From an uncultured Candidatus Saccharibacteria bacterium (lineage in GTDB: Bacteria > Patescibacteriota > Doudnabacteria > UBA920), in NCBI GenBank assembly GCA_964594755.1, contig CAZQMO010000001.1:169-64168 (forward strand): DNA of 64,000 nt, read 5' to 3'. Each line of letters opens with the position of its first letter. The first letter of the stretch is position 1. The notes beneath the pieces were generated by a model. It searched no databases, was not told where the DNA came from, and worked only from the letters and a program-made list of their open reading frames with translations. This document shows, one piece after another, positions 241 through 50,759 of the stretch. The position numbers and the translations under genes are program-made.

Positions 241-852
241 ATGCATCAGATTACTGTTATAGTTAAATGGTTAATCTTACTGGCTGTAGTAGCAGCTTTG
301 GTTTTTGTTTTGTTAAACTTTAATTATTTCAGTCAACATTTAACTTATTTCTTTGATCAAACATTTGTCACTGACGCACAACGAGAATTCCGCAGAAATG
401 AGCAACGAATTCAACAAAAGCCCAACGAAATTTATATACCAGCTCTCGAGATTCGGGCGCCGATTATTTTTACATCAGATACAAATGAAGCTGGTTTTCA
501 GCAGGCGCTTCAAAAAGGAGTAGTGCTCTATCCTGGGACAGCACAGGTAGGACAGGTTGGTAATACTTATATTTTTGGCCATTCTTCTGATTTTGCTTTT
601 GCCCCTGGAGAATTCAAAACAGTGTTTGCTTTATTACCGAACTTACAAATAGGTGAACAAGTTTTAGTGAGTAATGAAAACGGAAAAATCTTTAAATATA
701 TTGTCTACGAAAAATTTGTCGCTGAAAAAACCGCAACGCATTTACTTAGTCAAGATACTGGGGGACGCAAAGTCTTAACCTTACAAACTTCCTACCCAAT
801 TGGCACCGCATTAAAGCGCTATATAGTTAGAGCTGAACTATTGCCAGAATAA
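241..852 (+). CDS. sortase-family transpeptidase-like protein with Ser at the catalytic Cys position
   Basis: N-terminal TM anchor. Conserved His in NTYIFGHSSD, a TLQTS motif where sortases have TLxTC, and Arg at +13 (YIVRAEL), matching SrtA His-Cys-Arg spacing. The codon at 790-792 is tcc (Ser). Confidence 0.6.
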   Translation: MHQITVIVKWLILLAVVAALVFVLLNFNYFSQHLTYFFDQTFVTDAQREFRRNEQRIQQKPNEIYIPALEIRAPIIFTSDTNEAGFQQALQKGVVLYPGTAQVGQVGNTYIFGHSSDFAFAPGEFKTVFALLPNLQIGEQVLVSNENGKIFKYIVYEKFVAEKTATHLLSQDTGGRKVLTLQTSYPIGTALKRYIVRAELLPE

Positions 853-854
853 AA

Positions 855-880
855 AAGAACCCTGCGGGGTTCTTTTAGGA
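855..880 (+). terminator. rho-independent terminator
   Basis: aaccctgcggggtt hairpin followed by a T-run. Confidence 0.6.
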
Positions 881-937
881 TCTGGTTAACCAAGCTCACC
901 GGTTTCAGATTAACAACTAACAGATTTAGTGTCAATC

Positions 938-1009
938 TGGTGGACCGGAGGAGAATCGAACTCCCAAAACCAAGATGGTGAGCCTAGTTTTATCAACCAG
1001 ATCCGGCCC
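938..1009 (-). tRNA. tRNA-like gene with canonical T-arm and encoded CCA but a non-canonical D/anticodon region (identity unresolved)
   Basis: The reverse complement reads GGGCCGG...GGGAGTTCGATTCTCCTCCGGTCCACCA. A 7-bp acceptor stem, a GGGAG/TTCGATT/CTCCT T-arm and CCA are clear. The middle 40 nt does not fold into standard D and anticodon arms by eye. Confidence 0.4.
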
Positions 1010-1267
1010 ACTACTTTGAGGTTATAGACCTTAGTTCAATTTTAAATCAGGCTCAAATCAAAGTTTAATAAATTGGCTTAAATAAAGGATTTTTTTGTTG
1101 AGTTCTGGAAAAACTTACAAAAAACCCAATAAACCCTTGACTAATCCCCAAAAACCCTTGTGTTTTCGGGGTTTTTTATATACGATTAATACATAAGTCC
1201 AGCTTCTGAGTTCTAGAGACCAGGGGCACAATCAATTAAGCATCTCTACGGAGATTTAAGGAAAAAA

Positions 1268-4525: not shown

Positions 4526-5911
4526 ATGTCTACCAAAGCTGCAAGTGAACCAAATTTGCAGCAGTTGAATGAGCAAATCTATAAGCATAGCTTAGAACTT
4601 GCCGTAATCAATAAAACTCTTTCACTGCTTCGTAAGCTGTATCAGATAAGCTTACTTACTTTAGACCCGGATAAACTTTCCGAAAAGATTTCGGACACAG
4701 TCCGGGTTGATTTAAATATGGAGGTGGTTGGGATATTCATTGTGCTTGGTGAGACTAAACAGATTTCACCACAACCTTTTTCAATGTCGGATCGTTTTGC
4801 TGATGTTGTTAAAGCAGAAGGAATAGCCTGGGCTGAAGCAGAATCTTTTGATGCTTCAAAGAATGTGGTGTTAAATAAAGTAATAACTAATAAAGAATGG
4901 CATACTACTAAGAGTTTTCAGGATGTGTTTGGTGAATGGGTTGATCCAGCCAAGCTAAAAAAAATAGATGTCGAAGGCCATATTGACACTGTTCTAATTT
5001 ATCCTCTTGTAACTCAGGATGAGCTCATTGGTATTTTAATGTTAGGTTTAAACCGAGGCTATGATACTCTAAGTGATTTCGAGCAAGAAGCAATAAGTAG
5101 TCTGGCCAATGTAGTAGCCGTTGCTTTGGATAAAGCTTTAGTTTATGAGAAATTGAAAATTGCAAATGAGCAACTCAAAGCTCTCGATAAGGCTCGAGCT
5201 GAGTTCATTTCCATTGCCAGTCACCAGCTGCGCACTCCTCCTGCGACCATTAAATGGTATCTTAATGCCGTACTCAATGGTGACTTTGGTAAATTATCCG
5301 ATGAGTTATATGCTGCCCTCGAGCGTACTAATGTGACTAACGAGGCGCAAATTTCGACCATTGATGATTTACTAAACGCCTCTCGTATTGAACGGGGAAA
5401 GCTGGAGTTCTTCTTTCAACCTGCAAATATGGCACCAATGGTTTCCCAGTTAGTTGAGCAGCTACAACCTTTAGTAAAAATGCATAAGCAAAACATAGTC
5501 TACAAAGGTCCGACCGAAAAAATTCCAGACATTGTGATGGACGGAGAAAAGATCCGTCAAGTGCTCAACAATATGATTGATAACGCCATCAAATATTCAA
5601 AACAGGGGGATATTGTTGTTAAGCTTGAACATGATCAGGACAACATCACTGTAAAAGTTGTTGATACAGGTAAGGGTATGGATAAAGAAACCCAAGAAGC
5701 CTTATTTAAAAAATATTCCAGAGGTAAGGATAGTGCGACTCATGCCACAGGATTGGGCCTGGGTATGTACGTTGCTAAGGTCATTGTAGAGCAACACAAT
5801 GGCCGTATATGGGCGGAAAGCCCTGGGGTAGGTAAAGGGTCTACTTTTGCATTTTCTCTGCCAATTAAGAGCAAAATTGAAGCTACAGTGGTTGATCTTG
5901 CCCAAGAATAG
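4526..5911 (+). CDS. cytoplasmic sensor histidine kinase (GAF-like N-terminus, HisKA, HATPase_c)
   Basis: H-box SIASHQLRTP. N-box QVLNNMIDNAIKYS. G-boxes DTGKGM and GLGLGM. No TM segment. Confidence 0.85.
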   Translation: MSTKAASEPNLQQLNEQIYKHSLELAVINKTLSLLRKLYQISLLTLDPDKLSEKISDTVRVDLNMEVVGIFIVLGETKQISPQPFSMSDRFADVVKAEGIAWAEAESFDASKNVVLNKVITNKEWHTTKSFQDVFGEWVDPAKLKKIDVEGHIDTVLIYPLVTQDELIGILMLGLNRGYDTLSDFEQEAISSLANVVAVALDKALVYEKLKIANEQLKALDKARAEFISIASHQLRTPPATIKWYLNAVLNGDFGKLSDELYAALERTNVTNEAQISTIDDLLNASRIERGKLEFFFQPANMAPMVSQLVEQLQPLVKMHKQNIVYKGPTEKIPDIVMDGEKIRQVLNNMIDNAIKYSKQGDIVVKLEHDQDNITVKVVDTGKGMDKETQEALFKKYSRGKDSATHATGLGLGMYVAKVIVEQHNGRIWAESPGVGKGSTFAFSLPIKSKIEATVVDLAQE

Positions 5912-5938: not shown

Positions 5939-6002
5939 ATTGCATTAGGTCTAATTAACCCTTGGAAACAGTAGTTTCCTCGAAACAAATCTAGTTTCTT
6001 CA

Positions 6003-6446
6003 ATGGCTATCTATTCAAAATTAGTTGAAGTGACTTCCAAAAAACAATTTGAGCTCATAGACATCACTGGCCAAGTAGCTGAGGTGGTTGGTTCGAGTGG
6101 GATAAAAAACGGCATCGCCTTAGTCTATAACCCTCACACCACTGCAAGTATTCGGTTAACTCACAATGAGCCTATGTTGATGCAGGATGTTATGAAAATG
6201 TTATATCGGGTAGTGCCGCTGGAAGAAAATTATTCGCATGATGTCTTTGAGATGCGTACTGAAGTGGAAGTCAATGAGCGTAGTAATGGTCATGCTCATG
6301 TAAAATCTTTTCTGCTGGGTAGTAGTCAAACCATTCCTATCGCCGATAATAAGTTGTCACTTGGCACTGTGCAAACTCTGTTTTTTGTAGAATTGGATGG
6401 TGGGCGTAAGCGAGATTTTCATGTTGTTATTTATGGGGAGCAATAG
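6003..6446 (+). CDS. yjbQ: YjbQ/UPF0047 family protein (secondary thiamine-phosphate synthase-like)
   Basis: GIALVYNPHTTASI, NGHAHVKSFLLGSS and VELDGGRKR are characteristic of the YjbQ family. Confidence 0.7.
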   Translation: MAIYSKLVEVTSKKQFELIDITGQVAEVVGSSGIKNGIALVYNPHTTASIRLTHNEPMLMQDVMKMLYRVVPLEENYSHDVFEMRTEVEVNERSNGHAHVKSFLLGSSQTIPIADNKLSLGTVQTLFFVELDGGRKRDFHVVIYGEQ

Positions 6447-49619: not shown

Positions 49620-49780
49620 GACCTTAGTATATCAGACCCGACAACTCATGGCAGGTCTAAAACCAAAAGCAGACCCCTCTAGAAAGGTCTGCTTTGGAAC
49701 TTAACATGTTTGGCTTTTCAGCCTTATATATCATACCAAACCGTAAAATAGCGGGCAAGGTATGATTTGTGGATATTTAA

Positions 49781-49857
49781 TGGCGGGGACGACGGGACTC
49801 GAACCCGCGACCTTCTGCGTGACAGGCAGACGCTCTAACCAGCTGAGCTACGCCCCC
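49781..49857 (-). tRNA. tRNA-Asp (GTC), CCA encoded
   Basis: The reverse complement GGGGGCGTAGCTCAGCTGGTTAGAGCGTCTGCCTGTCACGCAGAAGGTCGCGGGTTCGAGTCCCGTCGTCCCCGCCA is a clean cloverleaf. Confidence 0.9.
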
Positions 49858-49880: not shown

Positions 49881-50094
49881 TGGTACCGGCGGTTGGAATT
49901 TAACCACCGACCTAAGGCTTGTTTACCCACTCACCAATACTCAAAGCTGGTAGCGGAGGGTGGGATCGAACCACCGACCTAAGGCTTATGAGTCCTTCGC
50001 TCTAACCAACTGAGCTACTCCGCCATAACATAATTAGATTAAGTATTGGTGGGTGGGTAAAGTCCTTCGCTCTAACCAACTGAGCTACGCCGGC
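49881..50094 (-). tRNA. interrupted (split) tRNA gene paralogous to tRNA-Met(CAT): 5' half and 3' half separated by a ~137-nt insert in the anticodon loop that contains a complete tRNA gene
   Basis: The 5' part GCCGGCGTAGCTCAGTTGGTTAGAGCGAAGGACT and the 3' part AAGCCTTAGGTCGGTGGTTAAATTCCAACCGCCGGTACCA have complementary acceptor strands (GCCGGCG/CGCCGGT). Both match the inner tRNA from D-arm through variable loop. The insert is bracketed by an 18-bp inverted repeat (50043-50060 vs 49923-49940, one mismatch). Confidence 0.6.
49948..50024 (-). tRNA. tRNA with CAT anticodon (elongator Met or lysidine-Ile2), nested inside the split tRNA
   Basis: GGCGGAGTAGCTCAGTTGGTTAGAGCGAAGGACTCATAAGCCTTAGGTCGGTGGTTCGATCCCACCCTCCGCTACCA. 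Fully paired acceptor, so not an initiator. Confidence 0.85.
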
Positions 50095-50242
50095 ACGTTT
50101 GAGTTTTTCTCCCAGATTGCTTGGGCCGACACTGAGCTCGTCGAAGTGGAGGTTAAGCGATTTGGGATAAGGGACAACATCCTGCAGGCTGCAGTGACTT
50201 CGAGAATTCGGAGGCACGGAAGCCGGAGGGATGATTGGCCCG

Positions 50243-50318
50243 TGGTTGCGGGGGTGGGATTCGAACCCACAACCTCAAGGTTATGAGCCTTGCGAGCTGC
50301 CAATTGCTCTACCCCGCG
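50243..50318 (-). tRNA. initiator tRNA-fMet (CAT), C1·A72 mismatch
   Basis: CGCGGGGTAGAGCAATTGGCAGCTCGCAAGGCTCATAACCTTGAGGTTGTGGGTTCGAATCCCACCCCCGCAACCA. Unpaired position 1/72 (C1·A72), typical of a bacterial initiator. Confidence 0.8.
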
Positions 50319-50377
50319 TCGTTAAGATACTTCGGAATTATATGATATTTTGCGATATTTTGCAACCCCTAACACAA

Positions 50378-50434: not shown

Positions 50435-50575
50435 CGATTAACGGCGGCGCTTCTTTGCAGCTTTACGCTTCTTTGCAGGGCGCTTTGCAGCTTTCTTAGC
50501 TGTGCGGCGCTTTGCAGTCTTCTTTGCTGCTTTTCGAGCAGTCTTCTTTGCTGCTTTTCTCTTTTTTGCTGCCAT
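50435..50575 (-). CDS. small highly basic Ala/Lys-rich protein (histone H1-like / AKKA-repeat nucleoid- or ribosome-associated)
   Basis: Hand translation gives MAAKKRKAAKKTARKAAKKTAKRRTAKKAAKRPAKKRKAAKKRRR*. SD GGGAGA 8 nt upstream and a terminator downstream. The annotated long ORFs here lie in other frames. Confidence 0.6.
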
Positions 50576-50759
50576 GGGTGGCTAGTCTCCCTGAAGTCAT
50601 CCACACAGATGACTTCTTAATGTTCTACTACTTAAAGCTCCGCTTTAAGGTTAGTAGTAAAAATGGTTACTCGTTTCTGTTTTCCTGATTTATTTTCGTT
50701 TCTTGTTTAACAAACTTTTCTAAGAACATTATATGTAATTTTTAAAAAGAAATCAAGAC

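Follow-up and report, generated by a model that had tools for sequence, protein, structure and literature searches.

What is a complete tRNA gene doing within the anticodon loop of another tRNA gene, and which of the two genes still serves the cell? This question is raised by a cluster of tRNA genes on the minus strand of a 64,000-nucleotide stretch of DNA, referred to here as the window, which is part of the chromosome of a small uncultured bacterium (CPR/Patescibacteria) and has ~40% G+C. The window carries the F1Fo ATP synthase operon, genes for a short CCA-type nucleotidyltransferase, RmuC, NYN and PIN proteins, and a PcrA/AddA-like helicase, as well as gyrB, pheS, lepA, nusG, and the genes of the ribosomal proteins L11 and L1. 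The nearest genomes in a species-level collection are metagenome assembled, several of them with CPR/Patescibacteria names (Falkowbacteria, Berkelbacteria, Minisyncoccia), and their AtpD proteins are at most 82% identical to that of the window.

The outer tRNA gene consists of a 5′ part (50094-50061, GCCGGCGTAGCTCAGTTGGTTAGAGCGAAGGACT, i.e., GCCGGCG...GGACT with U33 as the last base) and a 3′ part (49920-49881, AAGCCTTAGG...CGCCGGTACCA, reading AAGCC...CGCCGGTACCA with A37 as the first base), which flank a complete tRNA(CAU) gene (50024-49948). An earlier, sequence-only reading had described two outer tRNA parts around a complete tRNA(CAT) gene, and its statements on the sequence hold. The outer acceptor strands pair as GCCGGCG/CGCCGGT, with six Watson-Crick pairs and G1·U72. 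The reported near-identity of the outer halves to the inner gene amounts to full identity at positions 7-33 and 37-55, and the partial tRNA copies form direct repeats of 28 nt and 19 nt. CAT is absent at both junctions, as had been stated. The distance of 137 nt given there for the two halves has to be corrected, as U33 and A37 are separated by 140 nt (36-nt leader, 77-nt tRNA, and 27-nt trailer); 137 nt is the net gain at the locus once the lost CAT is subtracted. ARAGORN and Rfam called only fMet, the inner gene (49948-50024), and Asp at the cluster. The outer gene was not called by ARAGORN with intron mode and lowered thresholds, which gave spurious calls only, and an Rfam search around the locus at E ≤ 10 returned nothing but noise besides the three tRNAs; a YrlA match (E = 1.2) was dismissed as such. 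The features of the cluster are listed below, where R1 is a covariance model that we built from 39 members of the tRNA family to which the inner gene belongs.

50337..50365, minus strand: sigma-70-like promoter TTGCAA-17-TATAAT upstream of tRNA-fMet, likely start of the operon transcript
50243..50318, minus strand: initiator tRNA-fMet(CAU) with a C1·A72 mismatch (ARAGORN; Rfam, 66.6 bits)
50095..50242, minus strand: "Spacer B," 148 nt, conserved, from fMet to the outer tRNA (89% identity to L097 1292-1424, at the same position)
50061..50094, minus strand: outer tRNA 5′ part, positions 1-33, comprising the acceptor strand, the D arm, the 5′ strand of the anticodon stem, C32, and U33 (partial match to R1, 21.9 bits)
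50039..50061, minus strand: 5′ arm of the inverted repeat, TTTACCCACCCACCAATACTTAA, whose first base is U33 of the outer tRNA
50025..50038, minus strand: 14-nt AT-rich linker from the 5′ arm to the inner tRNA, predicted to be single-stranded
49948..50024, minus strand: inner complete tRNA(CAU) with encoded CCA (ARAGORN; Rfam, 66.9 bits; R1, 101.8 bits)
49922..49944, minus strand: 3′ arm of the inverted repeat, TTGAGTATTGGTGAGTGGGTAAA, beginning 3 nt past the inner CCA
49921..49921, minus strand: one unpaired C separating the 3′ arm from A37 of the outer tRNA
49881..49920, minus strand: outer tRNA 3′ part, positions 37-76, with private G50 and A56 (partial match to R1, 24.7 bits)
49781..49857, minus strand: tRNA-Asp(GUC), last gene of the cluster (ARAGORN, Rfam)
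49666..49695, minus strand: terminator-like hairpin with T run, located after tRNA-Asp and before RmuC and conserved in L088 and L099

The ends of the insert are complementary to each other. An 18-nt repeat pairing at 17 of 18 positions had been described before; this was confirmed, and the repeat was found to extend to 23 positions (50061-50039 with 49922-49944) with 91% complementarity, comprising 21 Watson-Crick pairs, one G·U, and one C·A. The helix starts at U33 itself and is continuous with the outer anticodon stem, beside which a 1x3 internal loop is the only irregularity, and the inner tRNA is placed at the tip of the stem by linkers of 14 nt and 3 nt. Folding of the precursor had been proposed as a check, and the 214-nt precursor indeed forms the predicted stem, with a minimum free energy of −81.2 kcal/mol versus −61.9 ± 4.8 kcal/mol for shuffled sequences (z = −4.05). 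Within the window the arm sequence occurs at these two sites only, with 0.01 occurrences expected by chance. The inverted repeat by far exceeds chance expectation. Comparable leader-trailer pairing was absent in ~75 other family genes with usable flanks (at best 13 bp, versus more than 20 here), and the stem is therefore a property of this insert rather than of the tRNA.

Neither the leader nor the trailer had a homolog in any of the ~230 loci that we fetched, and no second copy of the repeat arms and no donor locus were found in these loci or in the window. An 18-mer match to a repeat arm in a viral contig lies in a coding region with neither partner arm nor tRNA and was judged a chance match; a 14-mer arm match in L177 is isolated. 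The resemblance of the arms to transition-mutated acceptor strands or a tRNA 3′ end is by our estimate within chance and was left unused. A scan of viral contigs for the 3′ end of the inner tRNA found nothing, and a search of a phage collection with the 1-kb region gave generic tRNA matches only.

The same locus of relatives was fetched via the flanking proteins, and it shares the order atp operon, CCA-like nucleotidyltransferase, small basic ORF, fMet, X, Asp, and RmuC, where X denotes the tRNA(CAU) gene between tRNA-fMet and tRNA-Asp. In seven contigs (L088, L092, L093, L099, and L100-L102) X is uninterrupted and contains CAT; its sequence is GCCGGCGTAGCTCAGTTGGTTAGAGCG[A/G]AGGACTCATAAGCCT[T/C]AGGTCGTTGGTTCAATTCCAACCGCCGGTACCA. 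In two further contigs, L086 and L097, X is intact through the anticodon to the point where the contig stops. The closest relative is L097, whose neighboring protein is 87% identical and which has the same spacer at 89%. Conservation of the nested arrangement, which the sequence-only reading had suggested looking for, was thus not seen, all seven full-length and both partial orthologs being uninterrupted. Among the relatives X varies by one compensatory pair only (27-43), while the neighboring proteins are 50 to 88% identical. Since X is intact in the relatives and otherwise frozen, the interruption is lineage specific and recent. One of three possibilities considered earlier, the insertion of a tRNA-bearing element bounded by inverted repeats into a tRNA gene, is supported by these uninterrupted, CAT-containing orthologs. 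In L002, synteny is lost at this locus.

Other parts of the cluster are shared as well. The segment from the gene of the CCA-type enzyme to the tRNA promoter holds a 45-aa Lys/Ala/Arg-rich ORF (50438-50575, minus strand; MAAKKRKAAKK...), which is conserved and present in all relatives examined. Spacer B (50095-50242) has a homolog in L092 and L093, located there behind the X tRNA, and could represent a small RNA or a module that has been relocated. Between tRNA-Asp and RmuC, at 49666-49758, a promoter-like TTGCCC-17-TATGAT with TG is followed by a strong terminator hairpin; the arrangement is conserved in L088 as well as L099 and could correspond to a leader or a small transcript.

The outer halves carry the exact acceptor strands of X, and the outer 5′ part matches the orthologs of L088, L100, and L097 without exception at positions 1-33. 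Compared to X, the window differs by the exchange of CAT for the 140-nt insert and by two substitutions in the 3′ half, T50 to G, resulting in a G50·A64 mismatch, and C56 to A. The T arm accordingly reads GGTGG TTAAATT CCAAC in the outer gene versus GTTGG TTCAATT CCAAC in the orthologs; C56 is invariant in 39 aligned family members. The outer acceptor, D, and anticodon stems still pair, but the T stem is no longer fully paired, and the C56 that serves the G19-C56 tertiary pair is gone. There is no anticodon at either junction, U33 running directly into the insert. When the halves were joined in silico with any triplet, ARAGORN accepted the product; the damage to the cloverleaf is therefore slight, in keeping with a young pseudogene. 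Such changes as those of the outer copy would not be tolerated in a working tRNA. The private substitutions are, at two, small in number, and G50 equals the base of the inner gene and could reflect gene conversion instead of decay.

The inner gene encodes a canonical cloverleaf and has an R1 score of 101.8 bits, versus 22 to 25 bits reached by either outer half. Three compensatory stem pairs (2-71, 6-67, and 50-64) and two T-loop bases set the inner gene apart from X; all other positions are identical. These compensatory differences argue for evolution of the inner gene as a functional tRNA outside this locus, either in another lineage or in the form of an old paralog. At positions 8-65 it is identical to tRNAs on the distant metagenome contigs L161 and L171. 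The family, recognizable by GGACUCAUAAGCC and an A31·G39 pair, is widespread and occurs on at least 120 metagenome contigs. Its best matches in Escherichia coli are annotated tRNA-Ile genes (81% over positions 7-65), and contig L227 has a single family member in addition to the initiator and one further CAU tRNA; most likely, the family therefore represents tRNA-Ile2. The label "tRNA-Met(CAT)" that had been given to the inner gene is the caller's default for a CAT anticodon, and both the inner gene and X probably belong to tRNA-Ile2 rather than tRNA-Met. The earlier suggestion that the outer gene might be the third CAU tRNA and still functional does not agree with this assignment, as inner and outer gene are of one family, of which L227 has a single member. 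One family copy per genome is sufficient, and with the inner gene present the outer copy is therefore redundant. By its sequence the inner gene is the working copy. Most likely, the outer gene has become a pseudogene that is replaced by the inner gene.

Introns in tRNA genes abound in Patescibacteria, and 33/34 is the reported site of group I introns in their Met(CAU) tRNAs (PMC13011429). An example was seen in L001, where a group I intron (4656-4872; Rfam, 60.3 bits) interrupts the initiator tRNA-fMet; as the 3′ exon starts with CATAACC..., the insertion site is 33/34. The same Rfam scan that detected this intron found no group I core (Intron_gpI, RF00028) near our locus at E ≤ 10 and none in the entire window at the gathering score. 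The insert ends with ...GGGTAAAC and hence not in G, and the outer 5′ part does end in U33, but no cut restores CAT. A bulge-helix-bulge motif (3-nt bulge, 4-bp helix, and 3-nt bulge) was absent at the junctions, and neither a splicing endonuclease nor an RNA ligase was seen among the 28 window proteins scanned. A tRNA intron of a new type, which had been put forward as one interpretation of the locus, is not supported in view of these results, the two damaging private substitutions, and the lack of conservation even in the closest relative. The locus looks like the disruption of a tRNA gene with compensation, not like a new kind of intron.

With respect to mobile elements, terminal inverted repeats as in a MITE or TIR transposon are present (23 nt), and the 140-bp segment between the partial tRNA direct repeats contains no ORF. 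Comparison with the intact orthologs revealed no target-site duplication, CAT being lost and no bases duplicated. No transposase, integrase, or homing endonuclease was found within ~15 kb, where the neighbors are housekeeping genes. Integron attC sites, IS200/IS605 ends, and invertible switches were considered and rejected, since none of them predicts the nested order with the exact loss of CAT, and models of homologous or ends-in recombination fail in the same respect.

Taken together, we consider it probable that a lineage-specific insertion brought in a compensating tRNA gene, that the outer gene is a young pseudogene, and that the inner tRNA is released from an fMet-Asp transcript. The anatomy of the locus, the intact state of the orthologs, the two private substitutions, and the membership in one family are observed and form the basis of this explanation. 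In this genome alone, the CAT triplet of the resident X would have been replaced by a 140-bp segment with 23-bp inverted-repeat ends, in which a 36-nt leader and a 27-nt trailer enclose a complete tRNA(CAU) gene from the same family. The destruction of X would have been without cost and the loss tolerated because the insert supplied its own functional copy, and decay of the outer gene would since have begun. For transcription, processing, and the route of DNA entry we infer the following course. The whole cluster would be transcribed from the promoter upstream of fMet, which is the only promoter-like site upstream of the cluster and is conserved upstream of fMet in L088, L097, and L098; a terminator-like hairpin follows Asp, and no promoter was found inside the insert. 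The inner tRNA would be freed by RNase P and 3′ trimming, possibly aided by RNase III, for which the 23-bp stem around it is a potential substrate, and the two outer pieces, lacking an anticodon, would be discarded as by-products. The segment may have entered as a TIR micro-element or as a foreign fragment captured at a break at the 33/34 site; as the 5′ boundary after U33 coincides with the group I intron site, capture at a break there is a reasonable guess.

A second nested arrangement was found in L168, an unrelated metagenome contig. Here (833-1085, minus strand), the D loop of one family tRNA is interrupted between positions 21 and 22 by another, complete tRNA(CAU) of the family. The leader of this inner gene has 43 nt and its trailer 56 nt, and the ends of the insert pair imperfectly. 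The outer gene is otherwise intact, the pair of tRNAs is located downstream of tRNA-fMet, and the outer copy is redundant. The 492-nt intergenic region with the nested genes is identical in the ENA assembly L233 (762-1254); L232, a relative of L168, has different neighbors. Searches with R1 among 100 loci (L111-L210) and an orphan tRNA-motif scan of all fetched loci flagged no further nested case.

Fragments of tRNA genes were observed at a number of loci. In L088 (3818-3935), L092 (4068-4185), and L100-L102 (2110-2225), a 19-nt orphan fragment from the 5′ side of tRNA-Asp (GGACTGGTAGCTCAGTTGG) precedes a ~95-nt conserved hairpin-rich segment, after which the intact tRNA-Asp comes; in L100 the 18-nt leader is repeated too, giving a direct repeat of 37 nt. 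The window has no such fragment, and the acceptor stem of its tRNA-Asp is different. Orphan 5′ fragments of the tRNA(CAU) family in L118 (~6000-6120), L165, L211 (~430-540), L226 (~5465-5600), and L213 end in the D loop ~100 nt upstream of a full gene, in several cases with a stretch complementary to the D arm coming next. In L171 (8183-8381), L138 (~200-350), and L205 (797-931), the full tRNA(CAU) is directly followed by two extra tandem 3′ partial copies, units of ~70 to 100 nt with an anticodon-arm-like hairpin, a T arm, and the acceptor 3′ strand. Evidently, these tRNA loci are hot spots of small insertions and duplications. In addition, a T loop TGCAATT (G55) occurs in some CPR tRNAs (L147 3045-3116, L129 2843-2911, L153 1886-1953, L001 5069-5145, and L003 10252-10328), one of which is initiator-like with an aberrant D arm and was missed by ARAGORN.

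Four other explanations of the locus have to be weighed against an insertion with compensation. As the sequence-only reading had also considered, the inverted repeat might be a selected RNase III stalk, comparable to the stems around rRNAs or 23S intervening sequences, that releases the inner tRNA, the outer halves being kept to extend and anchor the helix. The 23-bp stem is continuous with the outer anticodon stem, carries the inner tRNA at its tip on the 14-nt and 3-nt linkers, and should be long enough for cleavage, and the insert ends in L168 pair too. Against this, the ~75 family genes with usable flanks do without comparable pairing (best 13 bp) and relatives make the same tRNA without any stalk; moreover, a stalk accounts for the release of the inner tRNA but not for its position inside another tRNA gene, and we regard this explanation as unlikely. 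Even less likely in our view is a functional interrupted outer tRNA, in which splicing or cutting and ligation would create the anticodon UAC, AAC, or UUA, or which would act as a two-piece tRNA. Intact acceptor, D, and anticodon stems, the acceptance of the joined halves by ARAGORN with any triplet, and the frequency of tRNA introns in Patescibacteria (PMC13011429) would be in line with it, as would the nested case of L168, in which the outer gene has an intact anticodon loop and T arm. However, the arrangement is absent from every relative examined, there is neither a group I core nor a bulge-helix-bulge, the insert does not end in G, CAT is not restorable, and the T arm has a mismatched stem and no C56. 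Nor is there a need for a UAA suppressor, because the housekeeping genes of the window have normal length under the standard code.

A purely local origin, by deletion within decaying tandem family copies or by duplication and rearrangement of X, without foreign DNA, would be suggested by the orphan 5′ and 3′ tRNA fragments that are common beside full genes in these loci and by a weak likeness of the 5′ arm to a tRNA 3′ end (family D4, 80% over 15 nt). Yet the likeness of the arm to tRNA ends is within chance, the two outer parts rebuild exactly one X ortholog with only CAT missing, the relatives have a single X here, and the inner gene is three compensatory pairs away from an X that is otherwise frozen in the clade, all of which makes such an origin highly improbable. 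Finally, the 28-nt and 19-nt repeats common to both tRNA copies might have caused an assembly artefact. Short-read contigs of other runs break in or near the cluster, and the 5′ junction comes from the window's own assembly. Around the cluster, Logan short-read contigs of several runs share their break points, which is consistent with graph branching at shared tRNA sequence or with strain variation; L081-L083 end at about window position 50592, and L086 and L097 end within the X tRNA. In contrast, the 3′ junction is exactly reproduced in an independent run: Logan contig L084 (run ERR2586217) is base for base the same over the inner 3′ part, the trailer, the 3′ arm, the outer 3′ half, and tRNA-Asp. 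If each of the four junction sequences is to be used once, the nested order appears to be the only possible linear path, and the analogous structure of L168 is identical in JGI and ENA assemblies. An artefact is thus the least probable of the four, with hardly any weight left to it.

An insertion with compensation shares features with several known systems but coincides with none of those compared here. Williams reportedly described in 2002 that integrative elements target tRNA genes and carry a replacement segment, which leads to an att-site duplication. Our locus is alike in the insertion into a tRNA gene (here in the anticodon loop), in the tRNA sequence of the incoming DNA that preserves function, and in the displaced partial tRNA copies that remain as direct repeats (here 28 nt and 19 nt). 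It is unlike them in the small size of the insert (140 bp), the lack of an integrase, the inverted-repeat ends, the supply of a whole tRNA gene instead of a 3′ segment re-completing the host gene, and the host gene left as two halves facing each other. Intervening sequences of bacterial 23S rRNA are excised by RNase III without religation. Here, too, an extended stem of ~100 to 200 nt replaces the loop of a structural RNA and removal by RNase III is plausible; however, a tRNA cut at the anticodon with the triplet missing cannot decode, and this insert carries a gene. MITEs resemble the insert in being small, with terminal inverted repeats and without coding capacity for a transposase, but in our case there is no target-site duplication (3 bp were lost instead), no other copies were found, and the cargo is a complete tRNA gene. 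The group I introns of Patescibacteria occur in the same phylum, target the anticodon loop, have their 5′ boundary after U33, and leave the host unharmed (PMC13011429). The present insert differs in having no ribozyme core, with 77 of its 140 nt being tRNA, in not ending in G, and in that excision cannot restore CAT; its harmlessness comes from a spare gene, not from splicing. Archaeal-type split, permuted, and intron-containing tRNA genes have been described in Nanoarchaeum, Thermoproteales, and Cyanidioschyzon, and complementary sequences adjoining the break likewise form a helix there that unites the tRNA halves (PMC3978253, PMC4033280). Our case concerns a bacterium, has no bulge-helix-bulge, no anticodon, and no conservation of the split state, and the intervening sequence is itself a tRNA gene.

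For annotation, the results mean that the "tRNA-Met(CAT)" at this locus is probably tRNA-Ile2, that this gene is frequently accompanied by nested and fragmentary tRNA copies in CPR genomes, and that short-read assemblies tend to break at such loci. A more far-reaching idea, which we consider rather unlikely at present, is that Patescibacteria contain undescribed self-compensating tRNA cassettes with complementary ends, or that the interrupted host tRNA still matures. Such cassettes would enter a homologous tRNA gene, in the anticodon loop here and in the D loop in L168, and supply a spare copy; a maturing host tRNA might be, e.g., a two-piece tRNA formed once RNase P, RNase Z, or RNase III has cut out the nested tRNA. 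If true, either version would add a third way, next to self-splicing and att-site restoration, by which an insertion into an essential tRNA gene is harmless. Should there be further nested cases, as L168 hints, a small tRNA-targeting element could be defined, and such loci would provide a natural system for the excision of tRNAs from long helices. The locus described here would be an in-place replacement of an essential single-copy tRNA gene, in which the incoming DNA wrecks the resident gene and brings a working homolog.
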